Shown: piece by piece, positions 3,920 through 61,653 of the stretch
Layout of the letters: each line of letters starts with the position of its first letter
Position numbering within the stretch: position 1 is the first letter of the stretch
Assembly: GCA_044225365.1 (NCBI GenBank)
Contig: JBGAIQ010000004.1
Coordinates: 160,001-224,000 of the forward strand
Direction of reading: 5' to 3'
From: Planctomycetota bacterium
GTDB taxonomy: Bacteria; Planctomycetota; B15-G4; JADJEK01
DNA: 64,000 bases
Position numbers and translations under genes: made by a program
Notes under the pieces: model-generated
Databases searched by the model: none
What the model saw: the letters and a program-made list of their open reading frames with translations, nothing else
Told to the model about the DNA's origin: nothing

Positions 3920-6900
3920 ATGAGCGATCGGGGACGAGTGAGTCGGGCGTGGACCAATCTGCTCGCGCAGTTGCGTCGAGCCTCGCCGCCGCTTGCCGCC
4001 CTGCTCGAACACCTCGTCGAGCGGCGGATCGACTCGCGCCGCTATCGAATCCTCTCCGAGATCGCGCGGGGCGGAATGGGGATCGTGTTCCGTGTCGTCG
4101 ACGAGGACCTCGATCGCACGCTCGCGATGAAGGTTGCCCGCGAACCTCTGCCTCTCTTCGGCGATCACCTGCCGAACGAGTACGACGCACTCTTCCATGC
4201 GCGCTTCCTGCGCGAGCTGCGAATCACCGGCCAACTGAATCATCCCGGCATCGTCGCTTTGCACGACGTCGGCATCGACGAGCACGATCGCCTCTTCTTC
4301 ACGATGAAACTCGTCGAGGGCGAGAATCTCGCGACGATCCTGCGCGCGATGAAGCACAGCGATCAGAAGTGGACGTTGCCGAGAGTGCTCGAGATCTTGG
4401 TGCGCGTGTGCGATGCAATGGCGCACGCCCACAGCCTGAAGATCATCCACCGCGACTTGAAACCGTCGAACATCATGGTCGGTCGGTTCTCCGAGACGTA
4501 CGTGATGGACTGGGGTCTCGCCCGATTCCTCGACGAACCCGAGCCGCAAGGCGAAGATCCCGACGGCGATCGTCCGGCGCCGCAACGGTCGACGAAGAGC
4601 GCGAGTCTCGACGAGACCCTCGAAGCGCAGACACTCGACGGCGAGGCCGTCGGTACGCCGTCGTACATGGCGCCCGAGCAGGCGCTCGGCGTGCTCGAGC
4701 GCGTCGGGCCGCTCTCCGATGTCTACTCGGTCGGCGCGATCCTCTACCACGCGCTCACCGGCGAACTGCCGTACACCGTTCCGCGGGACGGCTCCAGCGC
4801 GAAGAAGGTGAAACGATCCCACAACGTGCTCTCCGCGGTGGCGTCGGGAGATTGCGCGTCGATCGAATCCCTGAGCCCGAGCGCGCCGCAGGAGCTCGTC
4901 GCGATCTGTGAGCGGGCGATGGCTCGCGACTTCGAGAAACGCTACCCCTCGATGGAGCATCTCGGAGCAGATCTCCGTGCGTACCTCGAAGGCCGTGTCG
5001 TGGCCGCGTTCGAGAGTGGCACCTGGGCCGAGTTGAAGAAGTGGTATCGCCGCAATCGAAAGGTCGCGCTTCCGGCGATCTTGTTCGTCTTCGCTCTCTC
5101 GACCGCAGTCGGCTTCGGGCTGCGCAACAGCGAACTCGTCCAGAAATGGACAAACATCCAGGACTCGACGAGTCGGCGAATTGGATCCCTCGAGTCGGAC
5201 CTCGCGGAGGCTCGTCGGGTTGCGACGCAGGGCGTCGACGCGCTCGCGGCCGCGCAGAAGAACGCCGATGACGCGGCGCGATTGCGGAGCGAACTCCAAT
5301 CGCAACTCGACGCGGCGAATCTGGCAGCGTCGAACGCTCGGAAGAGTGCCGACGAACGCCTTCTCGAGTCGGCGCGAATCACCGAGGAGAACGAGCGCCT
5401 GAAGGGTGCCGCGAGCGAACTGGGGAAGCAGATCGCGGAAGTGAAGCGACTCGAATCGGAGATCGAACGTCTGAAGAACTCCGCACCCACGGCGCAGCCT
5501 GCGAGTCAGGATTCTCGCATCGCCGGCGATGCGGCGAAGGCGGCGGCGGAGATCATCGACGTGCGCGAGCGCCTGGCTCGCATGGCCAGCCCGTTGAAGA
5601 CGGCGGTCGCCGACTACGAGGGCTGGCTCGAGGATCACCGCGCCGCGCTGTCCGACGCCTCCGATTCGATCGCCGCGATCGAAGGACTCGACGATTCCGC
5701 TCCGCCCCTCCTTCGCCACCTGGCGCTCGTCCTAAAGCGATTGCGCGACGACCTGGAGAATGGGAACAACGGCGTGCTCGGACCCGGCCTCGCCCTATCG
5801 AGCCTGGACGTCGAGAAACTCGCGGCGCAGGCGAGGATGCTCGATGGCGTGCGTACGGGGCCTCTCCCCGCCGGCGTGTTGACTTGGGATCAGGCGCGGG
5901 AGGAACTCGCGAAGATCCCGGGATTCGACGGCGTCGTGTTGGGCAGACAGGACGATCTGCTGCCCATCGGCAGGAATCCGGACAGCGGGCTCCTCGAATT
6001 CTGGCACGTCCTGAGCGGCTCGTTGCCGAAACGAGATGCGAAGCGTCGCATCGTGCGGACCGATGGCGATGGCCTCGTCTTCGTCCTCCTACCCGGTGGC
6101 GAATTCAGGATGGGCGCACAGCGCGAACGATCGTCCGATCGCGGCGGCATCGACTTCGATCCTGACGCCGAGGCGAACGAGGCGAACAAGGGCGGCGAGC
6201 CCGTCAAGGTCGCGCTCGATCCGTACTTCATCGCGACGACCGAGATCACGTTCGCGCAATGGCAGAGGTTCTTCCGCCGCGTCGCGCCGGCGCACTTCGC
6301 CCTCGGGTCGTCGTGGGTCTTCGCGAAGGGCGCCGCGCCGGAGATCATCACGGGATCGCATCCCGTCGAAGGCGTCACGTGGGACGAAGCGAACGCGCTG
6401 CTGCCGCGCTACGGTCTCTCGTTGCCCACCGAAGCGCAGTGGGAGTACGCCGGACGAGCGATTCCCGCGCTTTCGAACAAGCGCGGACCGGATCCCGACG
6501 GCGTGCCGTGGTGGTTCGGCGACCACGGCGCGATCGAGAAGCTCGCGAACTTCGGCAACATCCTCGACCACAAACGCGGCGCGCTCTTCATGACGCCTTC
6601 GGCCGAGGATCAGAAGGTCGAGGACGCATTCACCCTCACGGCGCCCGTCGGTTCCTTCGCTCCGAATCCCGTCGGGCTCTTCGACGTGATCGGCAACGTC
6701 TCGGAATGGTGCCTCGACGCCCGCGTCGATCGCTACGACGAACCGCCCCGCGCGGCGGATGGACTGCGCGGACATGGCGATCGAGGGGTCGAGGATCAGC
6801 ATCCCTATCGCGGCGGCGATTATCGATCGACGAGCCATTTCGCTCGTCTGACCTCGCGACGCTTCGGACGGCACGACGAGTCGCTCGACAACGTCGGAGT

Positions 6901-6928
6901 GCGTCCCGTACGTCTGCTGCCGCGTTGA
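3920..6928 (+). CDS. Ser/Thr protein kinase with TM segment, coiled coil and C-terminal FGE-sulfatase (SUMF1-like) domain
   Basis: Kinase motifs RGGMGIV, AMK, HRDLKPSN, DWGLA, GTPSYMAPE; TM VALPAILFVFALSTAVGFGL; FGE motifs LPTEAQWEYAGRA and GLFDVIGNVSEWC. Start at MSDRG is approximate. Confidence 0.9.
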   Translation: MSDRGRVSRAWTNLLAQLRRASPPLAALLEHLVERRIDSRRYRILSEIARGGMGIVFRVVDEDLDRTLAMKVAREPLPLFGDHLPNEYDALFHARFLRELRITGQLNHPGIVALHDVGIDEHDRLFFTMKLVEGENLATILRAMKHSDQKWTLPRVLEILVRVCDAMAHAHSLKIIHRDLKPSNIMVGRFSETYVMDWGLARFLDEPEPQGEDPDGDRPAPQRSTKSASLDETLEAQTLDGEAVGTPSYMAPEQALGVLERVGPLSDVYSVGAILYHALTGELPYTVPRDGSSAKKVKRSHNVLSAVASGDCASIESLSPSAPQELVAICERAMARDFEKRYPSMEHLGADLRAYLEGRVVAAFESGTWAELKKWYRRNRKVALPAILFVFALSTAVGFGLRNSELVQKWTNIQDSTSRRIGSLESDLAEARRVATQGVDALAAAQKNADDAARLRSELQSQLDAANLAASNARKSADERLLESARITEENERLKGAASELGKQIAEVKRLESEIERLKNSAPTAQPASQDSRIAGDAAKAAAEIIDVRERLARMASPLKTAVADYEGWLEDHRAALSDASDSIAAIEGLDDSAPPLLRHLALVLKRLRDDLENGNNGVLGPGLALSSLDVEKLAAQARMLDGVRTGPLPAGVLTWDQAREELAKIPGFDGVVLGRQDDLLPIGRNPDSGLLEFWHVLSGSLPKRDAKRRIVRTDGDGLVFVLLPGGEFRMGAQRERSSDRGGIDFDPDAEANEANKGGEPVKVALDPYFIATTEITFAQWQRFFRRVAPAHFALGSSWVFAKGAAPEIITGSHPVEGVTWDEANALLPRYGLSLPTEAQWEYAGRAIPALSNKRGPDPDGVPWWFGDHGAIEKLANFGNILDHKRGALFMTPSAEDQKVEDAFTLTAPVGSFAPNPVGLFDVIGNVSEWCLDARVDRYDEPPRAADGLRGHGDRGVEDQHPYRGGDYRSTSHFARLTSRRFGRHDESLDNVGVRPVRLLPR

Positions 6929-6931
6929 CGT

Positions 6932-9094
6932 TCAGCGCACGGCCGCAACGCCGGTCGTGATCGCCGCGACGCGGTAGTTCCCGCCCGCGACGAAATCGGC
7001 GCGCGGTGCGGCGTCCTCGCGGCGGAGCAGATGGCCGAGGGCGGCGCAGCTCGCGGCACGGGCTTGCGACCAGGCTTCCGCATCACCCGCGAGGCTGACG
7101 AGGCTCGCCACCGAATTGCGATCGCCCGTGACACCGATCGCCGCAGCGAGCGAGATCACGCTGTTCAGGGTTCGCTCGCCGCGCAACGCCTCGAGGAGTC
7201 GCGGGTTCGAGTTCGTGCTGTGCAGGAGCCGCACGGCCCACGCCACGTGCCCGCGCATCTCGGGATCGCGATCGTCGAAGAGAAGGCTCTCGAGGTCTTG
7301 CCGCGCATTCTCGGCCCCGGCGAGTCCGAGGGCGAGAGCGCAGTAGCCGATCAGGCTCGGCTGGTCGCTTTCGGCGAGGCGCGTCCGCAAGGCGCTCGAG
7401 TGCGATGGATCGCCGAAGAGGCCGAGCGAGAGAGCCGCAGCGCTCGCGAACTCCGGGTTGGTCTCATGCTCGAGCTTGGCGGTGAGGGCGTCCGCGATCG
7501 TGGCCACGTCCGAACTCGCGCGTTGAGCGTCGAGGAAGGAGCGGCCGATCATGCCGAGCGCGAGGCTCGCCCAGGGCTCGTCGCTCTTGTTGTGGGCATC
7601 GCGAATCGTCTGTCCGAGGAACTGGACGACCGACTGCTCGAGCGCGCTGGAATCGTCCGTGGGTTCCTGCGACCCTCGCGCAACGATTTCGCCGAGAGCG
7701 ATCAGAGCGAAGTGGCGAGTGCCGAGGTTGCCGTCGTTCGCAGCTTTCTCGCGCAGCGCGAGAACGACTTCGCGATCCCTCAGTGACGCGAGGCGACCGA
7801 GCGCGATCACGCACGATTCCTGGATCCGTCGCTCCGTCCCCTTCGCAGTCAACTCGCGGAACAGATCCGGGATCGCACTCTCGGCGCCGAGTTCGGCGAG
7901 GGCGATCGGAACCTCCGCGGCGACATCGACCGCGAGCTTGCCATCGCGAAGACGCGCAACGAGGAACGGCGAGCGATCCGCCGCACTGCCGCAGCGAGCC
8001 AGCGAGAGCACGGCGATCTCCGCGAGCTTCGATGACTTCTTCGCGCCGCTGCGCACCGCGTCCTCGAGGGACGGCGCGGCGGACGGATCGCCGATGCAGC
8101 CGAGGGCGAACGCCGCCGTCGCCCGCAGTTCGTCGCGGATCGAGCCGTTCGAGGCGACCGCGATGCGACCGTCGCGATGATCGTCGACGATCTTGCGCAG
8201 CGTCTCGACGCTGTCGACGCATCCGAGCACACCGAGGGCGGCGACGATCTTCTCCTGGCGTTCGCTGGACGCTCGCGGCAGGGAGGCGATGAGGAGGTTG
8301 GCGACGCGCGGCGCATCCTGACGCGGCGCGATCTTCGACAGTGCGATGGCGGCCGCGGCGGCGATCGAGTCGTCGTCCGAATCGAGGCTGCGTTCGAGCG
8401 TCGGAACGACGCGGCGCGAGATCTCGGCATCGGAGAGCATGCGGGAGGCGTTCTCGATGCGGGTGACGCCCGTGCCGCTGAGGAAGCCGTTGCGATCCGT
8501 CGTGGGTTCGACGTCGAAGTCGCCGTCGATCATGAAACGGTGAGCGTTCGCCGCCCACCACGCCTGCCAGGTCTCGTCGAAATCCGTGCGGGGTGCGCGT
8601 CGCGTCAGATCGCCCGGCTGCCGCGCGTAACCCGGTCCACCGCCGCCCGTCGGGGGCCGCACGGTGCCGCCTCGGGGAGCGCTTGGCGCGGGCCCATGCG
8701 GAGGGGTGATCGTCGGACCATGGGTTCCGCCCACGGGTCCGCCCGGCTCATGATCGCGGGGATCCGGACGTCCAGTTGCCGGAATGGGAGTCGGGCGAAC
8801 GTTTCTTGGACCGCCTCCGACGCTTCCGCCGGTGGGATTGCCGGGGGTCGTGGGATCGGGACGACCCGAGCCGCCGCTGCCACCGGTTCCGCCCGTTCCA
8901 CCAGTTCCATCGTGGCCGCCCGCTCCGCCGGTTCCGCCCGTTCCACTGCCCGAGCCGTCGCCCGAACCGCTGGATCCTGAACCACTTCCGGAACCCGACC
9001 CGTCATGCTGCGCGAACGCGAGGCCGGGCATGAGCACGGCAGCGGCGAGTGCGGTAACGAGCAACCACGGCGTCGTCCATGCGGGGCGTAGCAT
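6932..9094 (-). CDS. Secreted HEAT-repeat protein with Gly/Pro-rich N-terminal region
   Basis: Signal peptide ending AFA-Q; GSGSG/GGTGG low-complexity tract; repeated AAxALG helical units. Confidence 0.85.
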   Translation of the reverse strand: MLRPAWTTPWLLVTALAAAVLMPGLAFAQHDGSGSGSGSGSSGSGDGSGSGTGGTGGAGGHDGTGGTGGTGGSGGSGRPDPTTPGNPTGGSVGGGPRNVRPTPIPATGRPDPRDHEPGGPVGGTHGPTITPPHGPAPSAPRGGTVRPPTGGGGPGYARQPGDLTRRAPRTDFDETWQAWWAANAHRFMIDGDFDVEPTTDRNGFLSGTGVTRIENASRMLSDAEISRRVVPTLERSLDSDDDSIAAAAAIALSKIAPRQDAPRVANLLIASLPRASSERQEKIVAALGVLGCVDSVETLRKIVDDHRDGRIAVASNGSIRDELRATAAFALGCIGDPSAAPSLEDAVRSGAKKSSKLAEIAVLSLARCGSAADRSPFLVARLRDGKLAVDVAAEVPIALAELGAESAIPDLFRELTAKGTERRIQESCVIALGRLASLRDREVVLALREKAANDGNLGTRHFALIALGEIVARGSQEPTDDSSALEQSVVQFLGQTIRDAHNKSDEPWASLALGMIGRSFLDAQRASSDVATIADALTAKLEHETNPEFASAAALSLGLFGDPSHSSALRTRLAESDQPSLIGYCALALGLAGAENARQDLESLLFDDRDPEMRGHVAWAVRLLHSTNSNPRLLEALRGERTLNSVISLAAAIGVTGDRNSVASLVSLAGDAEAWSQARAASCAALGHLLRREDAAPRADFVAGGNYRVAAITTGVAAVR

Positions 9095-17809: not shown

Positions 17810-20659
17810 ATGAGCTTTCGCTTCGCGTTACGCTCGAGTGCGTGCGTTGCATTCGTCGCGTGCTTCTCGGGCGCCTTCGGGCAGGACGAGGACACGATGA
17901 CCAATTCCGGTCCGGTCCTCAATTTCGAGAATCCGCTGGTTCATCCCCTGGCGATCTCGGCGGACGGCAAGCGCCTCCTCGCGGTGGACACGCCCGACGC
18001 GCGACTTTCGGTGTTCGACACGACGACGGCATCGATTCCCGCGCTCATTTCGGAGATCCCGGTCGGGATCGAGCCGGTGTCGGTAAGGATTCGGACCACG
18101 GACGAGGTCTGGGTCGTCAATCACACCTCCGACAGCATCTCGGTCGTGTCGCTCGCTCAAGGGGTGGTCACGGATACGATCTACGTGAAGGACGAACCGT
18201 CCGACGTCCTCTTCGCCGGGACGCCGACCCGCGCCTACGTCAGCGTATCGGGCAACAAGGAAGTGCGCGTCTATGACGTCACGACCCACGCGCTCGTCGC
18301 CACGATCGCGATCCAGGGCGTTCAGCCGCGCGCGCTCGCAGCGAGCCTCGATGGCACGAAGGTCTACGTCGCCATGGCGCTCTCTGGGAACAAGACGACG
18401 GTGATCCCTTCGAATCTCGCGCCGCCCCAGCCGAACCCGACGAACCCGAACGCAGGCACCCCGCCGAAAACAGCTTTGATCGTGGACTCGACGGACCCCG
18501 CGTGGGCCGGCGCGATTCCCTATTCGATCGCCGACAACGACGTCGCCGAGATCTCGACGGCCTCGAACACGGTCACTCGTTACTTCCATGGCGTCGGCAC
18601 GACGCTCTGGAACATCGCGGTTCAACCCACGACCGGTGATCTGTTCGTCGCCAATACCGACGCGCGAAACGTGGTGCGATTCGAGCCTGCGCTGCGCGGC
18701 CATGCGGTCGACAACCAGGTCGCGAGGATCGCACAGGGCTCCGGCGCCGTAAACGAGATCGACCTCAATCCGGGCGTGAACTACGCAGTCCTGCCGAACC
18801 TTTCGGCGAAGGCGACCGCGCTCGCCCAGCCAACCGACATCGCCTTCGATTCGACCGGCAACACGATGTACGTCGCCGCCTTCGGCACCGACCGCATCGC
18901 GAAGATGACTCCGAGCGGCACCATCTTGTCGCGCATCGAGATGGGAGCGGCGACGGGCTCGACGGTCGATCCCAAGACCAAGCGTGGGCCGCGCGCGATG
19001 GTGATTCATCCCTCCGGAGCCCGGCTCTACGTGCTGAATCGCATCTCGAACACGATCGGCGTCGTCAATACGGCGACGGACGCCGTGACCCTCGAGGTTG
19101 CGCTGGGCGCCTACGATCCGACGCCGGCGACCACGCGGATCGGTCGCGGCTTCCTCTACGACGCAAAGCTCTCGGGCAATGGCACGATGTCGTGCGCGAG
19201 TTGCCACGTCGATGCCGATTCCGATCACGAGGATTGGGATCTCGGCGATCCCGAAGGCGATCCGGAGGACATCCCCGACCCGTCGAACATCTACGGCGTG
19301 ATCCACATGCATCCCATGAAGGGACCGATGTTCACGCAGACCCTGCGGGGTCTTGCCGGCAATACCCCGCTTCACTGGCGTGGCGATCGCGCGGACTTCA
19401 CGGCGTTCAACTCGGCCTTCTCGAAGCTCATGGGCGGCAGCATGCTCGCCGCCGCCGACATGCAGGCGTTCTCGGACTTCATGAACGGCGTCGTGTTCGA
19501 ACCGAACCCGAACATGAACATCGATCGCTCGCTCCCGGCCTCGATCGCGGGCGGAAATCCGACGGTCGGCAAGGACATCTACAAGAACGGCTCGGCGAAT
19601 ACTCCGATCGGGGCGTGCAACAACTGCCATCACCTGCCCCTCGGCACCGGCAGCAAGATCGTCAACAAGACGGTGCTGGGACAGGCCCAGGGCCTGAAGG
19701 TCCCGCAGCTTCGGACCTCGTACAAGAAGCTGAACTTCGACAATTCTCCCGGCGCGACGTCGCTCGAGGGCTTCGGCTTCGCTCATGACGGAGCCTTCGC
19801 AACGATCGAGTCGTTCCTCAGCAATCCCGTCACCTTCGGCCCACTCGCCACGTCACCCCAGCAGCAGAAGGACCTCGCTGCGTTCGTGATGTGCATCGAC
19901 ACCGGCACGCCACCGGCGGTCGGTTACTCGCGCACGGTCACCGCCGCGAACATGAACACCGCGCCCATCACCACGGACGTCAATCTCCTCACGTCGCAAG
20001 CGCAACTCGCGGACGTCGACGTCATTGCCAAGGGCCGTCTCGACGGCGTCCTCCACGGTCTCTTGTATCTGCCCTCGATCGGCAAGTTCCAGACCGACAA
20101 GGGCGGATACGGACCGTTCACTTGGAGCGAGCTGAAGACGAAGATCGGGGCGGGTGGAATCCTCACGTTGATGGCGGTTCCCCTCGGCTCCGGCAAGCGC
20201 ATGGGCGTCGACCGCAACATGAACGGCATCCCGGACGCGGAAGAGACCTCTACCTTCGCGCTCGAGAGTTACGGCTCTCCGTCGCCAGCGTGTGCAGGGA
20301 ACATCCACGTGGCTTCGAACTCCGAACCGTTCGAAGGCAATGCGAACTTCGCCTTCACGTGTACCAACCTCACGCCGCTGACGAACTCGTGGCTCGTGCT
20401 GACGCCGGGCGAGGGAATGGAACCGCCCCTGACGATGTTCGGCATGAACCTGTGGGTCGATGTGACCACTCCGACGTTCGTGTTGCTCAACATCCCTGCC
20501 GATGATCTCGGGTTCGGTTTCCTGAAGATCCCCTTGCCGTTGAATCCGCCGTATCTCGACCTCCCGTTCTCGGCGATGGTCGTCACGACGAATCCGTGCG
20601 GATCGGTCGGCCTCGCAGGATCGCAAGGAGTTCGCTTCGCGATCACGACCGTGAACTGA
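17810..20659 (+). CDS. Secreted YVTN-type beta-propeller plus di-heme cytochrome c (CCP/MauG-like) protein with C-terminal domain
   Basis: Signal peptide; repeats IPVGIEPVSV, VWVVNHTSDSISVV, LYVLNRISNTIGVV; heme motifs CASCH and CNNCH; PLHWRGDR, KVPQLR. Confidence 0.85.
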   Translation: MSFRFALRSSACVAFVACFSGAFGQDEDTMTNSGPVLNFENPLVHPLAISADGKRLLAVDTPDARLSVFDTTTASIPALISEIPVGIEPVSVRIRTTDEVWVVNHTSDSISVVSLAQGVVTDTIYVKDEPSDVLFAGTPTRAYVSVSGNKEVRVYDVTTHALVATIAIQGVQPRALAASLDGTKVYVAMALSGNKTTVIPSNLAPPQPNPTNPNAGTPPKTALIVDSTDPAWAGAIPYSIADNDVAEISTASNTVTRYFHGVGTTLWNIAVQPTTGDLFVANTDARNVVRFEPALRGHAVDNQVARIAQGSGAVNEIDLNPGVNYAVLPNLSAKATALAQPTDIAFDSTGNTMYVAAFGTDRIAKMTPSGTILSRIEMGAATGSTVDPKTKRGPRAMVIHPSGARLYVLNRISNTIGVVNTATDAVTLEVALGAYDPTPATTRIGRGFLYDAKLSGNGTMSCASCHVDADSDHEDWDLGDPEGDPEDIPDPSNIYGVIHMHPMKGPMFTQTLRGLAGNTPLHWRGDRADFTAFNSAFSKLMGGSMLAAADMQAFSDFMNGVVFEPNPNMNIDRSLPASIAGGNPTVGKDIYKNGSANTPIGACNNCHHLPLGTGSKIVNKTVLGQAQGLKVPQLRTSYKKLNFDNSPGATSLEGFGFAHDGAFATIESFLSNPVTFGPLATSPQQQKDLAAFVMCIDTGTPPAVGYSRTVTAANMNTAPITTDVNLLTSQAQLADVDVIAKGRLDGVLHGLLYLPSIGKFQTDKGGYGPFTWSELKTKIGAGGILTLMAVPLGSGKRMGVDRNMNGIPDAEETSTFALESYGSPSPACAGNIHVASNSEPFEGNANFAFTCTNLTPLTNSWLVLTPGEGMEPPLTMFGMNLWVDVTTPTFVLLNIPADDLGFGFLKIPLPLNPPYLDLPFSAMVVTTNPCGSVGLAGSQGVRFAITTVN

Positions 20660-34236: not shown

Positions 34237-34749
34237 ATGCCTTCCTCCTCCGCCCCCTACAAGAGCTTCGCGCAGTTCCGCAAGGTCCTCCATCTGATCT
34301 ACGCCGCGATGTGCTTCGGCCTCGCGACGGCGACGGGACTCTTCTACTTCGTGTCGCGCTCGATGAGCCCGCCCGACCCGAAGCAGATGGAGAACATGAA
34401 CGAGCGCGCACTGCTGATCGCCGCGTCGGTGGTCTCGGTGGCGGCCGTGGGAATCGCCGCATTCCTGCCCATGCTCGCGACGAATCGAGTGCCGGACTCG
34501 CAGTTCGCCTTGAAGATCCGCAGCGTGCTCTACTCGAAGATCCTCTTCGTCGCGGCCTTCGAAGGCGGCGGCCTGCTGTGGGCCATCCTCGGCGTGCTCT
34601 TCCGCGACGAACGTTATTTCCTGGGTCCGATCGTGGCGCTCGCGATCCTCATCGTCTTCTTCCCGAACACGGCGCGACTCGAAGCGGCTCTCGGCGTCGA
34701 CGAAGCGACGGCGGATCGGCGTCTCTTGGAGATGGGAGCTGGCGGATGA
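34237..34749 (+). CDS. Hypothetical membrane protein
   Basis: MPSSSAPYK start, four hydrophobic segments, ATGA overlap with the next gene. Confidence 0.7.
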   Translation: MPSSSAPYKSFAQFRKVLHLIYAAMCFGLATATGLFYFVSRSMSPPDPKQMENMNERALLIAASVVSVAAVGIAAFLPMLATNRVPDSQFALKIRSVLYSKILFVAAFEGGGLLWAILGVLFRDERYFLGPIVALAILIVFFPNTARLEAALGVDEATADRRLLEMGAGG

Positions 34750-50214: not shown

Positions 50215-52182
50215 TCACCTCGAAGCGAAGACGGGCATCACGGTCGTCGTCGCCGTTGCATGGATGTCCTGCTTCAGCTTGTCGACGTCCTTGCGCAGCT
50301 CGCGCACCTCGTTGCGAAGATCGTTGATCATCTCGCGAAGCTCCTGATCGCCGCTCTCCGAAGGAGCGGGCGACCCGCGGCGGAGTTCCATCCTGCCACC
50401 GCTTCGCAGGCGCAATTGGCCCCCGGGCGCGGGGGGCGGAGCCACCTCTTCCGAGGGACTCGCGGCCTCGGGAGTCCGATTCTCGACCTTGTTGCCTCGC
50501 CGGGGGACAACGAGTGCGCGCGGCGCCGTGCGGAGCCGCATGCCCTGCGCGATCTTCGCCGGCAACTCCGAGTGGAGGCGGGCGAGTTTCGAGCGCAGCT
50601 TCTCGCCGACCTTCGCGTCGAGATCGATCTTCTTGCCGTTCACGATGATCGTCGGCAGGCGCGTGTTCTGTCCGTCGATGCGAATCTCCGGGATCTCCAC
50701 GCCCTGCGTGTGGATCTCGGGGATGACGATCTGCGGAATCGTGATGTCCGGAATCTTCATGCCCGGAACGACGACGCTGCCCTTCTTCACCTTGGCGACC
50801 TTCGTCTTTCCCGTATCGGGATCGACGGTGAGCGCGACGACGTCGTTGTCGCTCGCCCCTTCGGCGAAGGGGTCGGCTTCGGGCGCCAAATCGTCGGATC
50901 CGAGCACCGACGCAAGATCGAGGTCGCCGAGATCGATCTCGAACGCGCCCTCGTCGTCGGCGCAGTCGGTGCACGCATCGGTGCAGTCCGTGCACTCGTC
51001 CGCGCAGTCCTCCGCAGCTTCTCGAGCCTCTTCCGCGGCGTCCTCCGCAGCCTCTCGCGCCTCTTCCGCAGCGTCCTCCGCGGCGTCGGCTGCGTCCTCG
51101 GCCGCCTCCTCCGCAGCTTCACGAGCTTCTTCTGCAGCGGCCTCGGCTTCTTCGGCCTGACCCATCGCCTCGTCCAGGATCCCTTCGAGTTGATCTTGGA
51201 GTTGCGCGATCGCATCTTCGATCTGATCCCGCAGCTCGTCGCCAAGACCCTCGAGCTGATCGTTGAGCTGCGCGATCGCATCGTCGAGCTGAGCTTGTGC
51301 GTCCGAATCGATGTCGGCGCTTTCGCCGCCTTCGAAGATGCTCGCAACCATCGGCAATTCGATCGTCGCTGTCGACGGTGCGAGTTCGGTCGTCTCGACC
51401 GTCTCGACGGGTGCTCCGCCGACGACGACCGACTGCGAGGCCTTCGGCGGCATCGGAGCCTTCCCAGGCTTCGACCGCAGCTTGCTCGCTCCATTCACCG
51501 ATGGCGCGTCACTCGGTACGGCACCACCCACGCTACCGCCGACACCACCACCGAGCCCGCCGCCCGCGCTCTGACCGACGCCCACGGACGAGCCGAGCCC
51601 GGATGCGGAGCCACCCACACCGACCGGCGAACCGCCGCCGAGACTGTAGACGACCCCCGGCCCACCCGCGGTCGAAACGCCGCCCTGGCCATAGGCGATC
51701 ACGTTCGCAGAACCCGGACCGCTCGTCGAAATCGAGCCCGCGAGTCCGCCGATGGAGCCGTTACGGGCCGGCGGGAGAGTGAGCGACGTGACGCTGCTGT
51801 GCTTCGCCTTCTTCGTCGCTTTGGGCGGAGCAGGGGGTGCTGCTGGAATCGTGGAATCCGGGGCCATCGGGGCCATCGGGGCCATCGGGGCCATCGGGGC
51901 CATCGGGGCCATCGGGGCCATGGGAGCTCTGGGCGCACGCGGCGCTCGAGGTGCTCGGGGTGCGCGCGGGGCGCTCGGGGCGGCGATCGCCCCGGCCGCG
52001 GCTTGTCCCTCCTTCGGCGGGCAGTACGCAGCGAGCGTCAGGCCCGTCAACGGAACGCGACCGTTCACGTTCGCGGCGCCTCCGCCCATCGCGACAGCTT
52101 GTGCGGAGCCAGGGTTCAGGAAATACATCGCGCCGACGCCGAGCGTCAATGCGAGGCCAATACCGAGCTTGTTCGAGATCAC
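50215..52182 (-). CDS. Secreted low-complexity protein (PRA/MAP repeats, Gly-rich, acidic coiled coil)
   Basis: GTGA overlap with the M56 gene, GGAGG SD, signal peptide ending AQA. Confidence 0.8.
   Translation of the reverse strand: MISNKLGIGLALTLGVGAMYFLNPGSAQAVAMGGGAANVNGRVPLTGLTLAAYCPPKEGQAAAGAIAAPSAPRAPRAPRAPRAPRAPMAPMAPMAPMAPMAPMAPMAPDSTIPAAPPAPPKATKKAKHSSVTSLTLPPARNGSIGGLAGSISTSGPGSANVIAYGQGGVSTAGGPGVVYSLGGGSPVGVGGSASGLGSSVGVGQSAGGGLGGGVGGSVGGAVPSDAPSVNGASKLRSKPGKAPMPPKASQSVVVGGAPVETVETTELAPSTATIELPMVASIFEGGESADIDSDAQAQLDDAIAQLNDQLEGLGDELRDQIEDAIAQLQDQLEGILDEAMGQAEEAEAAAEEAREAAEEAAEDAADAAEDAAEEAREAAEDAAEEAREAAEDCADECTDCTDACTDCADDEGAFEIDLGDLDLASVLGSDDLAPEADPFAEGASDNDVVALTVDPDTGKTKVAKVKKGSVVVPGMKIPDITIPQIVIPEIHTQGVEIPEIRIDGQNTRLPTIIVNGKKIDLDAKVGEKLRSKLARLHSELPAKIAQGMRLRTAPRALVVPRRGNKVENRTPEAASPSEEVAPPPAPGGQLRLRSGGRMELRRGSPAPSESGDQELREMINDLRNEVRELRKDVDKLKQDIHATATTTVMPVFASR
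51859..51921. repeat. Perfect 9-bp tandem repeat (CGGGGCCAT)x7 encoding (Met-Ala-Pro)7 on the minus strand
   Basis: Read directly from the sequence. Confidence 0.97.
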
Positions 52183-55397: not shown

Positions 55398-56711
55398 ATG
55401 TCGATTTCGATGCCCATCGTCACCGCCGCGGCGATCACTTCTCTCTTCGGAGCGACCCTCGACGCGCGCGCCCAAACGATCGTCGCAAAGGGTGACACGA
55501 CGATCGATCGAAAGCAGGAGCCCGGCGCGTCGCCCTTCGGCGACCTGATCGGCGAGCACACGCTGACGCCCACGAGCGGCGGTGAATCGCGATTGCGCTT
55601 CGTGCTCATGCGATCGAATCCATCGACGGTTCCCAGTGCCGGCGCCGGAGAGACCGATCCGCCGCAGGGCGTGAAGGCGGTCGATCGTTATCTCTTCGAG
55701 GTCCTGCGCAGTGTCGATCGCGATCGACTGCACGATCTCGTCGCGATCGACCAGCTCGTCACCCGCGTGAGCGAGGACACGAGGACGATCGAGCTCGAGC
55801 ATTCCATCGAGGTACAGGGACCGGAGGATTCGTTACGACGCGCCCTTTCGAAGCTGGACGCATTCGTCGCTGCGAACCGCACCCTCATCACGGTTTCGAT
55901 CACGGCGGCGAAGAAAGCCACTCCCGCGGCGAACGATACGGCGCTCGTTTCGATCGTCGACCAGGCTGCATGCGACGCGATCCGTTCGGCCATGAAGTCG
56001 GCGTCGCACGAGGTGCTCAGTGCCCCGACTCTCACGGTCTACGGCGGACAACGCGGCGAGATCTCGGCGTTGAACGACACTCCCTACATCGCCGATTTCA
56101 CCGTCACGGCCACGAAAGACGCACTCATCGCCGACCCCGTGATCAAAGTGCTCAAAGAAGGGATTCGCTTCAGCGTCACGCCGATCGTCGACGTCGATGG
56201 AGAGCACCTCCATCTCGCGATCGAGTCCTGGATCGGTCGCGTGCGCCGACCGATCCGGGAATTCCAGACGACGCTCGCGGCTGGGGCCGCGCAGGTCACA
56301 TTGCAATTGCCGGAAGCGCTCGAGACGCGGTGGAAGAGCGATTTCCTCGCAATGTCCCGCGACGACCACGCGGTGCACGTCGAGAAGATCCGTTTCGTCG
56401 AGTTCGACGACGAGAAGGGCGAGATCCCGGAGGAACTCGAGTTGCTGATCGAGGTCCGGCGCGCGACACCTCCTTCGAACGACGGAGGTCCCTTCAGCGG
56501 AATGGTGATCGGCGTGGACGCCTCGAACCTCCGCGTCTTCGTCACCTGTCGAGACTCGAGTGGGAAGACGACGACACTTCGAGCGAATCAGATCTCCATC
56601 TTCCGGGGAAACGACCCCGTGGGCGAATGCGTGGTTCTCGAGAATCTAGGCGGAGTGCTCGTGTGCAGGCTCGCGAAGGGAGAAGCCCGCGCGGGCGATT
56701 CCGCAAAGTGA
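55398..56711 (+). CDS. Secreted protein with a partial secretin-like domain
   Basis: Signal peptide ending ARA-Q; VLSAPTLTVYGGQRGEI...EGIRFSVTPIV resembles the type II/III secretin core. Confidence 0.65.
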   Translation: MSISMPIVTAAAITSLFGATLDARAQTIVAKGDTTIDRKQEPGASPFGDLIGEHTLTPTSGGESRLRFVLMRSNPSTVPSAGAGETDPPQGVKAVDRYLFEVLRSVDRDRLHDLVAIDQLVTRVSEDTRTIELEHSIEVQGPEDSLRRALSKLDAFVAANRTLITVSITAAKKATPAANDTALVSIVDQAACDAIRSAMKSASHEVLSAPTLTVYGGQRGEISALNDTPYIADFTVTATKDALIADPVIKVLKEGIRFSVTPIVDVDGEHLHLAIESWIGRVRRPIREFQTTLAAGAAQVTLQLPEALETRWKSDFLAMSRDDHAVHVEKIRFVEFDDEKGEIPEELELLIEVRRATPPSNDGGPFSGMVIGVDASNLRVFVTCRDSSGKTTTLRANQISIFRGNDPVGECVVLENLGGVLVCRLAKGEARAGDSAK

Positions 56712-56813
56712 ACATGCGGGCGGGCGCGGCGGCCCATTTCTCGTGATTTGGGAACCGAAGCGAGGAGTGATTTCGGGTAGGCTCTGGCCTTTTCCGCCTG
56801 TTGGAGCCTCTTT

Positions 56814-58469
56814 CTGTCTGCATCATCCGACTCGTCCGCGTTCGCCTCCCTCGGACTCTCCGCCGCGTCACTCGACGCGCTCGCGCGGGCGAACTACACG
56901 GCTCCAACCCCCATTCAGCAGAAGGCCATTCCGCTGGCTCTCGAGGGCCGTGACATCATTGGTTGCGCTGCAACCGGCACCGGGAAGACGGCGGCGTTCC
57001 TCCTCCCCATCATCGAGAAACTGACGGGAAAGCGCGGCCCGCGCGCTCTCGTCCTCGCCCCCACTCGCGAACTCGTGCAGCAGATCGCCGAGCACCTCGA
57101 ACGCTTCGGCGCATCGCGCGGAGTGCGCGGCGCCGAGATCATCGGCGGCGCGTCGATGGGCAATCAGGTCGCGCAACTTCGCCAACAGCGCGAAGTCATC
57201 ATCGCGACGCCGGGCCGCCTCCTCGATCACCTCGAACAACGCACCGCGCAGCTCGACCAGGTCGAGATCCTCGTCCTCGACGAGGCCGACCGCATGCTGG
57301 ACATGGGCTTCATGCCGCAGCTCAAGCGGATCATGCGCTACGTGCCCGAGCGTCGGCAGACGATGCTGTTCTCCGCCACGATGGCGGGGGAAGTCGCGGA
57401 ATTCGCGAAGCGCGCACTCCACGATCCGGCCCGCGTCGAGATCGAGCGCAGCGGGACGGTCGCCCGTAACGCCACGCAAACCGCTTTCGTGGTCAACGAA
57501 GCCGACAAGACCGCTCTCCTCCTCGCGCTGCTCTCGCAGGACGAAGAGACCACGCTCGTCTTCGCACGCACGCAGCGCCGCGCGGACAAGCTCGCGAAGA
57601 CGCTCGCTCGGCTCGGACATCGAGTCGCGCGGATCCACGGCGGACGCACGCAAGCTCAACGCGAGCACGCTCTCGATGGTTTCAAGTCGGGGCAGCATCG
57701 CGTGCTCGTCGCCACCGACATCGCGGCGCGCGGCATCGATGTGAGCGACATCGGTCACGTCGTGATGTTCGACATCTCGCGAGCGCCCGAAGACCACGTC
57801 CATCGCGTCGGACGAACGGCCCGCGCCGAGGCCGTGGGTCACGCGTCGACGTTCGTCGCGCACGAGGAACTGCGCGCGCTGAAGGACATCGAACGCTTCC
57901 TGCGTACTTCGATCACTCGCGCCGACCTGCCCGATCTCTCGACGTGGCGCGCCGAGATCGAGCGCGCGCGGTTCGCCGCCGAATCGCAGCATGCATCTCA
58001 TGCGCCGCGCGCACACTCCAACGCACCACGACGCGGACCGCCGCGCGAGAAGTCGCGCGGTTATGGAAAGTCGCACGGCAACCCGGGACATTCCGCAAAG
58101 CCGGGGCACGGCGGCAAGAAATTCGGAAGTGGACGCCGCGGATTCGCATTCATCGGCCGGTCGAGTTCGTCGCCCCGCCCGAGTTCCGCCCCACGCTCGA
58201 ATCATTTCGATTCGCCCGAACGCCGGTCCGACGCGCCCGTTCGCAACGACGAACGCGGACATTTCCGCAATGAACCGCGGCGCGAACACTTCGAGGATCG
58301 ACCGACAGGAAAAGGCGCGAATACCTTCAGTCGCGGTCCCTATGAAGGCCGACAAGACAACGTAGACCGCAGAGGTTCCGATTCCCGCCCCTCGGGTCAG
58401 AATGCTCCACGCGGCCGCTTCGACGCTCGCAAGAATCGTCCCTACCGTTCCCGAGGAGAGCGATCCTGA
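56814..58469 (+). CDS. DEAD-box RNA helicase (RhlE-like), probable CTG start
   Basis: Q motif FASLGL..YTAPTPIQ, ATGTGKT and PTREL lie upstream of the ORF-track start at 57075; also DEAD, SAT, ARGID, HRVGRTAR and an Arg/Gly-rich tail. In-frame TAG at 56778; GGAG (56803-56806), 7 nt, then CTG at 56814. Confidence 0.9.
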   Translation: MSASSDSSAFASLGLSAASLDALARANYTAPTPIQQKAIPLALEGRDIIGCAATGTGKTAAFLLPIIEKLTGKRGPRALVLAPTRELVQQIAEHLERFGASRGVRGAEIIGGASMGNQVAQLRQQREVIIATPGRLLDHLEQRTAQLDQVEILVLDEADRMLDMGFMPQLKRIMRYVPERRQTMLFSATMAGEVAEFAKRALHDPARVEIERSGTVARNATQTAFVVNEADKTALLLALLSQDEETTLVFARTQRRADKLAKTLARLGHRVARIHGGRTQAQREHALDGFKSGQHRVLVATDIAARGIDVSDIGHVVMFDISRAPEDHVHRVGRTARAEAVGHASTFVAHEELRALKDIERFLRTSITRADLPDLSTWRAEIERARFAAESQHASHAPRAHSNAPRRGPPREKSRGYGKSHGNPGHSAKPGHGGKKFGSGRRGFAFIGRSSSSPRPSSAPRSNHFDSPERRSDAPVRNDERGHFRNEPRREHFEDRPTGKGANTFSRGPYEGRQDNVDRRGSDSRPSGQNAPRGRFDARKNRPYRSRGERS

Positions 58470-59335
58470 ATCTTCAAGCCACACAACCCGATCGTGATCC
58501 GACGCGCCCCTGGACCTGGGGTTTCTTCGACTGGCTGCCGGGCGAAGGACGGACGCTCTTCTGGATCGTCCTGATCCACGTCCTCTCGATCGTTGGAATC
58601 GTCCTGTTCCCGCTTCCCAGTCTGAACGTCGGGCTCGCGGCCTTCGCGCTCGCCTTCCTCGGCGGGCTCGGAACGACCGTCGGTTATCACCGCGCACTCG
58701 CCCACAAGGCCGTCACGCTGAACCCGGTCGTACAGTTCTGCCTCACGTTCCTCGCGATGTTCAACGGCTCGGGCGCGCCCGCGACCTGGACGTCGAATCA
58801 TCGCAATCACCACATGAACGCGGAGACCGAGGCCGACGTCTCGAGCCCGCGCATCGGCGGTTTCTGGTGGGCGCATCTCCGCTGGCTCTGGCAGTCCTCG
58901 CAGAGCTCGCTCACGCGCTACGCACCCGATCTCGACACGCCGTACTGGCGCTTCTGGACCAAGGCGCAGCCCTTCGTCGTCGCTGCGTCGCTGTTCGTCG
59001 GTCTCCCCTTCGGCTGGCAGGCGTTCTTCTGGATGGGCGCGATTCGCCTCACCTTCTCGCTGCACGCGCAGTGCACCGTGAACTCGATTGCCCACATGAA
59101 GAAGGGCGTCGCTCCGGGCGAGGATTCGTCGCAGAACCTTCTCTGGCTCGGCTTCTTCCAGTGGTTCCAGGGTGAGAACTGGCACGGCAATCACCACGCC
59201 GAACCCAATTCCGCGCAGCTCGGCTGGAGCTGGCGTCAGCCCGACCTCGGCTGGGCCTTCATCTACGTGATGGAGAAGGTCGGCCTCGCGAGCCGAGTCC
59301 GCCGGCGCAAGGACGTGGCGCGAAAAGCGGCCTGA
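58466..59335 (+). CDS. Membrane fatty-acid desaturase (delta-9-like), probable CTG start
   Basis: His boxes HRALAH (upstream of the ORF-track ATG at 58757), HRNHH, HGNHH; N-terminal TM helices. GAGGAG (58453-58458), 7 nt, then CTG at 58466 overlapping the helicase TGA. Confidence 0.88.
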   Translation: MNLQATQPDRDPTRPWTWGFFDWLPGEGRTLFWIVLIHVLSIVGIVLFPLPSLNVGLAAFALAFLGGLGTTVGYHRALAHKAVTLNPVVQFCLTFLAMFNGSGAPATWTSNHRNHHMNAETEADVSSPRIGGFWWAHLRWLWQSSQSSLTRYAPDLDTPYWRFWTKAQPFVVAASLFVGLPFGWQAFFWMGAIRLTFSLHAQCTVNSIAHMKKGVAPGEDSSQNLLWLGFFQWFQGENWHGNHHAEPNSAQLGWSWRQPDLGWAFIYVMEKVGLASRVRRRKDVARKAA

Positions 59336-59358
59336 CCCCCCCCGAATCGATCGACTCG

Positions 59359-59398
59359 AAGAGCGGCCTTCACCTGCGGGTGCGGCCGCTCTTTCGTT
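59359..59398 (+). terminator. Terminator hairpin after the helicase-desaturase operon
   Basis: Stem AAGAGCGGCC / GGCCGCTCTT with inner CACC/GGTG pairing, followed by TCGTT. Confidence 0.6.
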
Positions 59399-59544
59399 GC
59401 ATCGCACGCTCGCTCGAGAATCCCGCGAGAAGCGTGGCGGGTTCCGAACTCGCTTTCCGACCCTTTCTCCTGAACCCGAATCGCGCGATCCCGATGCGGC
59501 ACGTCGCCGCCGAGGGATCTCGCACCTCGAACAGGAGAAACGTC

Positions 59545-61653
59545 ATGTCCCGCCTCCAGAGTCGCCTCGCGCTTTCCTTCGCCGCCTGCCTCCTCGGTGC
59601 CTCGCACGCGCTTGCGACCGACGACGACGCGAACGACGCCCAAACCGCCTGGGTCTGGTATCACGATCAGACACCTTCGCAGATCACGGCCCTCATCCAA
59701 CAGGGTTATCGCGTCACGAATATCGAAGTCGACTCCGCATCCCCCGCGCTGTTCACCGTCGCGATGGTGAAGAACTCCGGTTCGTACGCGAAGACCTTCT
59801 GGTGGTACTACGGACAGGACTCCGCGACGATCGCCACCGAGCTCGCCCAGAACAGCGCGCGCCTGATCGATCTCGAACCGTACAACCTGAACGGTCAGGT
59901 GCGTTTCGCCGCCGTCATGGTGAAGAACACCGGCGCCGACGCAAAGAACTGGTGGTGGGTCGCGAGCTCGAATCTGAACGATGTCTCGACGACACTGACG
60001 CAGAACGGCGCGCGTCTCACCAAGCTCGATGAAGTCACGATCGGCGCGAACACCTACTACGCCGCGATCATGATCCAGAACTCGGGCGCCGACGCGAAGA
60101 GTTGGTGGTGGTACCACGGCGTCGACGGCTCGTTCGTCGCGACGCAGCTCGGTGCGACCGGCGCCCGTCTGCTCGATCTCGCGCGGCGGTCGGATGGACT
60201 CTTCGACGTCGTCCTCGCGCAGAACGACGAAGGCTTCCATTGGTGGTGGTACTACGGCCTCGACGAGGCCGCGCTGAATGCGGAAATGGCCCAGACCGGC
60301 TCACGGGCCCTCTGCGTCCAGAAGTCGAATTCGTTCCTCGGTGCGACCTACTCCGCCGTGCTCATCAACGACTCGAACGCGCTGACCACGACGGTCGGCG
60401 ACATCTTGCGCACCGGCACCGATGGCGTTTCGGGCCTCTACCTCAAGGAGATCAACGGTCCCGTCCTCGCGAGCCTCGAGGAGCAATACGTCTTCGAGCC
60501 CGCGAGCACTTTGAAGACGCTCGTCCATGCCCATGCGATGAAGCAAGTCGCGCTCGGCACGGTCTCGCTGAACCAGCCGATCCTCGTCGACACGGGGCTC
60601 ACCGGTTCGTGTCCGAACGGCACGCAGCCCGTCATCGAGTCCCTGCAGGTCGTCCTCACCAAGATGATGCAGAACTCCGACAATGCCCGCACCAAAGCGG
60701 CCGTCGACTTCTTCGGGCAAGCGAACATCAACGCCACCGCGGTCGCGCTCGGCATGACCCACTCGCAGATCAACCATGTATTCGGATGCGGCGGTCCGAT
60801 TCCGAATCAGCTCACACTCGTCGACGGCGACGCGCTTCACGAGGCCGTCGCGAATGGATTCCTGGGCGCACAGAAGCAGACGTTCCACGACATCATGCTG
60901 TCGAGCGTCCCGGGATATGCGGGCGGCCTCCTCGGACAGGTGATCGATCAGGAAGCCGCGGCGATCGGCGTCAGCAACGCGATGAAGGCGCAGTTCATCA
61001 CGCTCGCCGAGATGGCGTACAAGGGCGGCAGCTACACGATCTTCCCGGGTCCGAAGGAATACCGATCGGTCCTCTCGTACGTCGATCTCCCCTTCCTCGC
61101 GCAGTTCTTCGGAAACACCGTGGTCACGCATCATCAGTACGTCACCGGGATCTTCGTCCACGCGGCTTCGAACGGCTTGACGGTCGACGGCGTCGTCAAT
61201 CACGCCGCATCGGAGCTGCTGCGCGATGAGATCCATGCGGCACTCCTCACCTGGAAGTCGAACTGCGTCGCGTTCAATGCGTCCTACGGTTCGGGCAAGG
61301 CGGGAACCAAGGGCGTGCCGACTCTCACGTCGAGCCAGCTCCCGAGCCTCGGCGCGACGTCGAGCATCACGCTCGGCAACGGCAAACCCGGAGCCGCACC
61401 GCTGCTCTTCGTCGGCTTGAACAGTTCGAACCAGAGCTTCGACGGCGGCAAGTTGCTGGTCCAGCCGCAACTCATCCTGACGCTCCCCGTGATTCCCCAG
61501 AATGGAACGCTCTCGATCGCGGGCACGCTGCCGGCGGATCCGACGCTCTGTGGCGTCACGATCTATCACCAGATGATGTTCGCCGACGCGGGCGCGTCCG
61601 GCCCGTATCACACGGCGCAGACCGCGGGTCTCGCGCGCACGCTCGGCAACTGA
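59545..61653 (+). CDS. Secreted serine hydrolase (class A beta-lactamase fold) with Trp-rich tandem repeats and C-terminal domain
   Basis: AGGAG SD, signal peptide; about 5 repeats of about 50 aa containing WWYYG-type motifs; SxxK (ASTLK), SDN, KGG. Confidence 0.85.
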   Translation: MSRLQSRLALSFAACLLGASHALATDDDANDAQTAWVWYHDQTPSQITALIQQGYRVTNIEVDSASPALFTVAMVKNSGSYAKTFWWYYGQDSATIATELAQNSARLIDLEPYNLNGQVRFAAVMVKNTGADAKNWWWVASSNLNDVSTTLTQNGARLTKLDEVTIGANTYYAAIMIQNSGADAKSWWWYHGVDGSFVATQLGATGARLLDLARRSDGLFDVVLAQNDEGFHWWWYYGLDEAALNAEMAQTGSRALCVQKSNSFLGATYSAVLINDSNALTTTVGDILRTGTDGVSGLYLKEINGPVLASLEEQYVFEPASTLKTLVHAHAMKQVALGTVSLNQPILVDTGLTGSCPNGTQPVIESLQVVLTKMMQNSDNARTKAAVDFFGQANINATAVALGMTHSQINHVFGCGGPIPNQLTLVDGDALHEAVANGFLGAQKQTFHDIMLSSVPGYAGGLLGQVIDQEAAAIGVSNAMKAQFITLAEMAYKGGSYTIFPGPKEYRSVLSYVDLPFLAQFFGNTVVTHHQYVTGIFVHAASNGLTVDGVVNHAASELLRDEIHAALLTWKSNCVAFNASYGSGKAGTKGVPTLTSSQLPSLGATSSITLGNGKPGAAPLLFVGLNSSNQSFDGGKLLVQPQLILTLPVIPQNGTLSIAGTLPADPTLCGVTIYHQMMFADAGASGPYHTAQTAGLARTLGN

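Follow-up and report, generated by a model that had tools for sequence, protein, structure and literature searches.

Predicted CTG start codons on both genes of a planctomycete helicase-desaturase operon and their conservation across genera

How does translation begin on a gene whose frame holds no canonical start codon ahead of the conserved part of its protein? This question is raised by two adjacent genes in a draft genome of the Planctomycetota, located within a 64-kb stretch of contig JBGAIQ010000004.1 (hereafter the window; coordinates are window positions unless a contig is named). The first gene encodes a DEAD-box RNA helicase and the second, directly downstream, a predicted Delta-9 membrane fatty acid desaturase. 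An earlier, sequence-only reading placed the desaturase start at a CTG that overlaps the helicase stop codon, and took it for a weak start made dependent on translational coupling to the helicase. The helicase, like the desaturase, lacks a canonical start, which went unnoticed in that reading. We consider it probable that the two genes form an operon in which both cistrons are initiated by formylmethionyl-tRNA (fMet-tRNA) at a CUG led by a Shine-Dalgarno (SD) sequence, with low output limited by the start codons.

The anatomy of the junction proved to be as first described, with every coordinate verified. The window reads ...CCC GAG GAG AGC GAT CCT GAA TCT... at approximately 58450-58475. In the helicase frame the final codons are GGA GAG CGA TCC TGA (TCC at 58464-58466, TGA at 58467-58469), and the last base of TCC together with the first two of the stop forms CTG 58466-58468, which lies in the desaturase frame 7 nt after GAGGAG. 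That frame is closed upstream by TGA 58343-58345, giving a stop-to-stop open reading frame (ORF) of 329 aa (58346-59335), and the ORF list contains no ATG, GTG or TTG from this stop until ATG 58757, which follows the CTG in the same frame by 291 nt, or 97 codons, and from which 192 aa remain. As the sequence-only reading had foreseen, the translation shows that a start at this ATG would cost the protein both transmembrane helices (TM1 and TM2) and its first histidine (His) box, HRALAH, along with a WTW motif. ATG, GTG and TTG together comprise 4.9% of codons in this genome, and the probability of meeting none of them across 97 coding codons is ∼0.007. In a genome-wide census, which ranked 4319 coding-like ORFs by the coding signal before their first canonical start, the desaturase stood second.

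The CTG is also not imposed by the coding sequence of the helicase. The synonymous codons TCA, TCG and TCT would produce ATGA, GTGA and TTGA at the junction, as previously stated, and the genome uses TCG for 66% and TCC for 28% of its TCN codons. Because TCG is the commonest of these, codon bias alone would lead to the expectation of GTGA. The last sense codon of the helicase, TCC in this genome, is GCC in the related genus g6, and the commoner TCG (66%) or GCG (56%) would yield GTGA in either case. Against the tail of the genome's own 16S rRNA (...GGATCACCTCCTTTCT), the desaturase SD forms a duplex of -9.3 kcal/mol, placing it among the strongest 15% of ATG starts. The unusual feature is the absence of any canonical start rather than the CTGA tetramer, which is itself unremarkable: CTGA at 20656 and 59332 also satisfies the ORF-junction filter. 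At the latter position (59332-59335) the desaturase stop again lies within CTGA, in frame with the next ORF (59176-61653); GTG 59380 of that ORF comes 16 codons later, an apparent signal peptide lies further in, and this CTGA probably arises by chance. Other NTGA overlaps had been listed for the window as well. Those at 34746, 54903 and 23147 on the forward strand and at 10742 and 38585 on the reverse strand join coding-like ORFs of at least 100 aa; at 52179 the tetramer is present on the reverse strand, but the junction failed the ORF filter.

The region skipped by ATG 58757 is conserved protein. An alignment of desaturase orthologs (alignment A1) covers the WTW motif, TM1, TM2 and the first His box, and the three boxes HRALAH, HRNHH and HGNHH are invariant across it. 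The ratio of nonsynonymous to synonymous substitution rates (dN/dS) over the 82 N-terminal codons is 0.14-0.39, similar to the remainder of the gene. The desaturase matched no Pfam family, even at an E-value of 10, and its score against the NCBIfam DesA family NF049918 (80.5 bits) falls short of the cut-off of 400 for that curated profile. It does align to mouse SCD1 (PDB 4ymk) over residues 28 to 276 (E 2e-12), the match beginning within TM1 at residue 28. Because this alignment covers TM1, TM2 and the His boxes, the downstream gene is assigned as a predicted Delta-9 (SCD1-like) membrane desaturase.

For the helicase, Pfam returned DEAD (7e-55) and Helicase_C (1.6e-30), and the Q motif, motif I (GTGKT), DEAD box and C-terminal helicase domain (PF00270 and PF00271) are all present. 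The nearest NCBIfam profiles are CshA and RhlE, and the score is below every equivalog cut-off (for CshA, 407 versus 646 bits). Contig depth in four sequencing runs leaps to thousands at 57246-57336 and 57701-57791, with many loose ends; these peaks are the DEAD and HRIGR-type helicase motifs attracting contigs from other organisms and not a feature of the locus.

The helicase frame is open from 56781 (stop-to-stop 56781-58469), and its first ATG, GTG or TTG is GTG 57075, which comes after both the Q motif (TPIQ) and motif I (AATGTGKT). Position 1 of the CshA profile corresponds to residue 21 of the open frame, at the sequence FASLGLS, 9 codons past CTG 56814. In the 20 codons ahead of this family N-terminus, the only near-cognate codons are CTG 56784 and CTG 56814, the latter standing in a GGAG-N7-CTG arrangement at 56803-56816. 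The helicase ranked 12th of the 4319 ORFs in the census. Its CTG is outside any stop-start overlap, as the previous long ORF ends at 56711, ∼100 nt away, and its SD duplex of -5.6 kcal/mol is near the median of ATG starts. The two helicase paralogues of this genome have ATG starts. In both genes of the pair, the frame runs from its upstream stop into conserved N-terminal protein sequence without a canonical codon. The positions of all features are collected in Table 1.

Table 1. Features of the helicase-desaturase pair, in window positions.
Feature	Position	Strand	Remark or basis
TAG closing the helicase frame upstream	56778..56780	+	in-frame stop
GGAG, SD of the helicase	56803..56806	+	7 nt ahead of CTG 56814
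DEAD-box RNA helicase (RhlE/CshA-like), predicted coding sequence from CTG 56814 to TGA 58469	56814..58469	+	Pfam DEAD and Helicase_C
GTG of the public gene call, truncated 464-aa helicase	57075..57077	+	ORF list
GAGGAG, SD of the desaturase	58453..58458	+	within the last helicase codons, 7 nt ahead of CTG
CTGA, predicted desaturase start on the helicase stop (-4 overlap)	58466..58469	+	kept in G005, G010 and G011
Delta-9 (SCD1-like) membrane fatty acid desaturase, predicted coding sequence, 289 aa	58466..59335	+	alignment, translation
His box 1, HRALAH	58688..58705	+	upstream of ATG 58757
First canonical start in the desaturase frame; public gene call, truncated 192-aa protein	58757..58759	+	ORF list
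His box 2, HRNHH	58799..58813	+	translation, alignment A1
His box 3, HGNHH	59183..59197	+	translation, alignment A1

Comparison with related genomes was the check proposed for the junction in the sequence-only reading. The desaturase was matched in 29 of 41 related genomes, this genome (G000) included; orthologs of 44-69% identity were found in 14 genomes besides G000, and the start region was inspected in 15 loci. Wherever the helicase directly precedes the desaturase (four of four genomes, in two genera), the CTGA overlap is present with an SD 6-7 nt upstream, which argues against drift or error. In genus g6 (G005, G010 and G011) the helicase stop overlaps a desaturase-frame CTG in the arrangement AGAGAGGTCACGC-CTGA-AC, with GAGG 6 nt upstream. 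A block of 25 nt around the junction is identical in these three genomes and its flanks vary, the synonymous divergence between two genomes of the genus being 0.47-0.65. As in the present genome, G010 has no canonical codon ahead of TM1. In genus g4 (G008 and G003) there is no helicase within 3.7 kb and 1.4 kb, respectively, upstream of the desaturase, and both of these unlinked genes have TTG at the apparently homologous codon, judged by position. The other nine desaturase loci (families f2-f4) have ATG, GTG or TTG available. ATGA or GTGA at the junction, named earlier as a sign of neutral drift or error, was found in distant relatives only, the close ones keeping CTGA.

The helicase start is kept more widely still. 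Orthologs (E 1e-130 or better) were found in six of the 12 genomes of the family, and all six, from three genera, show GGAG-N6/7-CTG about 10 codons before FASLGLS with no canonical codon ahead of it. The nearest in-frame stop before this CTG is a TGA 2 codons away in G008, a TAG 4 codons away in G003, and a stop 11 codons away in genus g6 and 12 here. At this place, ATG, GTG or TTG is available in most helicase homologues with no more than 53% identity. The same near-cognate codon and its SD are therefore retained in six of six helicase orthologs and in four of four linked desaturases. A strain ∼95% identical to this one is present as DNA contigs in three runs from two other studies. None of the differences listed for it (40 of 148) falls at 56803-56816, while 56765/56766, in a GAGGAG farther from the helicase CTG, vary; its junction is spanned by X1 and one X5 contig only. 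These comparisons point to a CTG that is conserved and not an error.

Sampling was extended with a metagenome search using the desaturase ortholog alignment, which yielded 80 loci of 52-65% identity. In 72 of these, a canonical codon lies after the upstream stop and ahead of the conserved Trp motif; eight have none. Seven of the eight (L121, L128, L134, L135, L141, L158 and L164) share the sequence TAG/TAA-AGT-GGA-GCA-ACY-ATT-ACC, that is, GGAG, 5 nt and ATT, preceded four codons earlier by an in-frame stop; in L135 the proximal GGAG is replaced by TTGC. L104, the eighth, carries AAGGA-7 nt-ATT. The ATT motif was also found in L170, L174 and L180, which belong to two metagenome-assembled genomes (MAGs) of Thermoanaerobaculia and one of Acidobacteria gp7, and two of these three match metagenome loci exactly. 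In Acidobacteriota, some desaturase orthologs seem to begin at ATT; with another codon at another position, this looks like an independent event in a second phylum. A TTGTCAA-N17/18-TTGACAA inverted repeat lies ∼20-55 nt upstream of the acidobacterial ATT (e.g., in L121, L170 and L180; L158 is without it) and looks like an operator for a dimeric repressor.

In three of the metagenome loci a DEAD-box helicase directly precedes the desaturase, with junctions of ATGA (L140), TAA-G-GTG (L160) and TTGATG (L166). Because these three distant loci show tight canonical junctions, the pairing of helicase and desaturase with a tight junction appears to be recurrent, and CTG appears peculiar to this planctomycete clade. 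A single-protein desaturase search of genome contigs gave three distant loci only, all with canonical starts. In L008, L113 and L165 the helicase is found at the other side of the desaturase.

From this anatomy we infer that CUG is used on both cistrons, where fMet-tRNA would start at a CUG 7 nt (6 nt in relatives) past a GGAG-type SD, the codon being read by the normal initiator tRNA through a first-position mismatch. The helicase CUG would act as a free-standing, SD-led start that sets a low flux for both proteins. The desaturase CUG, which shares two bases with the helicase stop (CUGA), could be supplied by two routes: 30S subunits binding at its fairly strong SD, and ribosomes coming directly from termination on the helicase. 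The operon would seem to be built for low, start-codon-limited output, because CUG gives ∼4-12% of the AUG level in Escherichia coli reporters. In the chloramphenicol acetyltransferase constructs reported in PMC3643588, CUG gave 327-906 units, AUU ∼300-350 and AUG 7314-7838. A special initiator tRNA for CUG was rejected: aragorn predicted 56 tRNAs, including three with a CAU anticodon and one type-II Leu-CAG. The same program made one call of 'tRNA-???(cc)', with a two-base undetermined anticodon. A promoter scan of 56400-59700 found no promoter-like sites, although it relied on a sigma-70 consensus that may not apply, and a terminator scan of the same interval gave two sites versus 2.3 expected, one of them within the desaturase.

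Several points weigh against this reading. SD use in the genome is moderate, with a 4-mer SD at 34% of first ATGs versus 11% in the background, and pre-start CTG codons are not enriched for SD sequences: 34 of 1148 carry a 5-mer SD (2.96%) versus 2.77% overall, in a test of low power. No general habit of CTG initiation is therefore visible in this genome, although a few dozen genes would escape such a test. The helicase SD is a 4-mer whose pairing with the 16S tail is equalled or bettered at 32% of random internal sites, so that it owes its weight to conservation. Among the relatives, G005 has an ATG 8 codons and G011 a GTG 10 codons after the desaturase CTG and before the WTW motif, neither with an SD, and scanning ribosomes could take these codons instead. 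Similarly, in G008 and G003 an ATG follows the Phe of the helicase Q motif by 9-10 codons, and a shorter helicase is conceivable in these two genomes. Finally, the six genomes are kin and cannot be counted as six independent observations; they cover some three lineages in the case of the helicase and two in that of CTGA.

Tentatively, CTG may instead be too weak to function alone, in which case the desaturase would be made only by ribosomes terminating on the helicase, through obligatory termination-reinitiation at CUGA. The presence of CTGA in four of four linked genomes and of TTG in two of two unlinked ones favours a contribution from coupling; in addition, the genes overlap or lie 1 nt apart in all three distant helicase-desaturase pairs, and NTGA is described in one study as the commonest coupling motif (PMC12548453). 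The contrast between linked and unlinked genes rests on two or three lineages, however, and the helicase uses CTG with no upstream partner, which means that coupling is not required for a CTG start here and cannot be the whole story. De novo initiation on the desaturase would also be possible given its strong (-9.3 kcal/mol) and unstructured SD, and two of the four CTGA genomes (G005 and G011) offer a canonical codon 8-10 codons downstream. The dependence on coupling put forward in the sequence-only reading survives in part: the linkage pattern agrees with it, but the uncoupled helicase also appears to begin at CTG.

It is also possible, if doubtful, that the CTG starts are real and have no regulatory meaning, each representing a tolerated, neutral or slightly deleterious C inherited from an ancestor, with low expression being enough. 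The desaturase evidently works with other starts, given the TTG in genus g4 and the canonical codons in all more distant orthologs, and infC, the gene for initiation factor 3 (IF3), starts with ATG in this genome, with no E. coli-type IF3 autoregulatory circuit evident. Yet three different single-base changes would give a canonical start, and the helicase CTG has persisted in three genera at an inter-genus synonymous divergence of ∼0.8-1.0 (measured on the desaturase). The ATT of the Acidobacteriota is a second, apparently independent non-canonical start in the same desaturase family, and such a recurrence, with CTG in one phylum and ATT in another, is a hint that weak or conditional starts may be selected for.

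We think it unlikely that the two genes are initiated quite independently, each from its own SD and CTG, with the 4-nt overlap being incidental packing and the proteins not translationally coupled. The helicase CTG points to an SD and CTG being used alone in this lineage, and chance CTGA tetramers occur at the ORF overlaps at 20656 and 59332. On this account, however, it is difficult to explain why the junction is exact in two genera, with an invariant 25-nt block in genus g6, and why tight junctions recur in distant operons. A desaturase start at some other near-cognate codon is very improbable: the best candidate, ATC 58463-58465, is in frame and follows GGAG by 4 nt, but this spacing is short, the position is occupied by CGC in genus g6, and it is the CTG that is conserved; a start at this ATC was rejected. 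That either start results from assembly error, pseudogene decay or a fusion by frameshift or readthrough is scarcely credible, even for a metagenome-assembled draft in 103 contigs, as the same codons occur in independently assembled genomes, both frames are intact and under purifying selection (dN/dS 0.14-0.39 for the 82 N-terminal codons of the desaturase), the two frames differ with no slippery heptamer at TCC-TGA or GCC-TGA, and the genes stand apart in genus g4.

CUG is among the codons scrutinised by IF3, and both DEAD-box helicases of the RhlE, CshA and CsdA kind and Delta-9 desaturases are cold-induced in other bacteria. A regulatory role for the paired CUG starts, be it in sensing IF3, ribosome maturation or cold, is speculative. 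In its boldest form, which we regard as improbable, the two codons would constitute a sensor of initiation fidelity, in which relaxed IF3 proofreading would let more ribosomes start at CUG and yield more of a helicase for ribosome assembly and RNA unwinding and, via CUGA, more of a membrane-fluidising desaturase. Cold or assembly stress would then be answered by a feedback loop at the level of translation, with no transcription factor involved, and the AUU of the acidobacterial genes, likewise scrutinised by IF3, would represent convergence on this device. Immature 30S subunits of E. coli that lack RbfA or KsgA are reported to bypass codon-anticodon proofreading, and loss of LepA to raise the use of CUG and AUA, with assembly defects worsening in the cold (PMC6868393). 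One in-vitro study found the activity of an AUU mRNA to be lower in the cold (PMC5499595), a result that speaks against a simple version in which cold favours weak starts. The ATG of infC gives no sign of an IF3 circuit in this genome. An RNA thermometer or start-hiding structure was sought in five folds, none of which was more stable than shuffled sequences (z +0.18 to +1.39).

The helicase-desaturase operon is the clearest case of non-canonical starts in this genome. When the other 20 top-ranking ORFs of the census were searched against Pfam, 14 had no match, three had domains that start after the first canonical codon, two were fragments (an AhpC after a TGA and an epimerase C-terminus) and one was a candidate. 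The candidate, L056 (C66:154302-155624, forward strand), has an LPG_synthase_TM domain from residue 126 and its first ATG, GTG or TTG at residue 165, with AGGA-5 nt-ATC at residue 82, and may be another non-canonical start. An AhpC/TSA-like ORF, L041 (C14:47657-48028, forward strand), begins at profile position 43 directly past an in-frame stop. A tRNA-Sec was found in the genome by aragorn, and L041 is consistent with a selenocysteine (TGA) peroxiredoxin. On the reverse strand of C49, two adjacent stop-to-stop ORFs (5921-6358 and 6359-6967) share one frame, with coding signal up to both upstream stops, and are probably a single gene divided by an in-frame stop, whether through recoding, error or pseudogene formation. 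The first-ranked ORF of the census, L039 (C95:248513-249568, reverse strand), has a coding signal for ∼154 codons before its first canonical start; it had no Pfam match, and no SD-led near-cognate codon was found near its coding onset.

Both proteins are truncated in public records because gene callers miss CTG. The recorded desaturase of 192 aa lacks TM1, TM2 and His box 1, the recorded helicase of 464 aa lacks the Q motif and P-loop, and the missing residues amount to the first 87-97. For this clade, any function predicted or family built from these gene calls will be in error, and the same probably holds for the acidobacterial desaturases with predicted ATT starts. CTG starts are already known in bacteria, and the operon is a well-supported new example. 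What it adds are two conserved CTG starts in one helicase-desaturase operon, a CTGA junction kept in two genera, and the predicted ATT starts of the acidobacterial orthologs. Among the articles searched, no paper dealt with start-codon usage in Planctomycetes or with desaturase or DEAD-box helicase genes that begin at CTG or ATT. The operon offers a clean comparative case of CUG retained on both cistrons in more than one genus, standing free on the helicase and overlapping a stop on the desaturase. It would also be a good natural substrate for asking whether reinitiating ribosomes tolerate near-cognate codons better than free 30S subunits do, and whether expression is linked to IF3 or to the state of the ribosome through weak starts.

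As proteins, the two products have clear counterparts. The helicase has the full motif set in common with the RhlE, CshA and CsdA helicases, although it scores under all NCBIfam equivalog cut-offs, and the desaturase has three His boxes and alignable TM1 and TM2 helices in common with mouse SCD1, although it is without a Pfam match. As regards their starts, the nearest parallel is Caulobacter crescentus, in which 0.7% of coding sequences were reported to begin at CTG on the basis of ribosome profiling and liquid chromatography-mass spectrometry (PMC4117421). In common with those genes, the present pair belongs to a GC-rich host, would be read by the normal initiator tRNA through an SD-led first-position mismatch and was missed by automatic annotation. 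The present case differs in that its evidence is comparative, that both cistrons of one operon are concerned and that the codon is kept across genera.

The junction itself resembles the NTGA (-4) stop-start overlaps described as coupled by termination-reinitiation (PMC6728339; PMC12548453), in that the genes are co-directional and share the two bases TG, and the SD lies within the end of the upstream gene. It departs from them in that N is C, so that the start is not ATG, GTG or TTG, and in that coupling is predicted here from sequence alone. Rare start codons with a regulatory role have been described for infC (AUU; PMC5499595) and for Streptomyces sigR (GTC, repressed by IF3; PMC5472188), and an ATT start for Enterococcus ebpA (PMC4447247). 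For the present operon a dependence on IF3 is conjectural, and the infC of this genome has ATG. Like them, however, the operon carries a conserved rare start on stress-related or dosage-sensitive genes whose annotated start is wrong or lies downstream.

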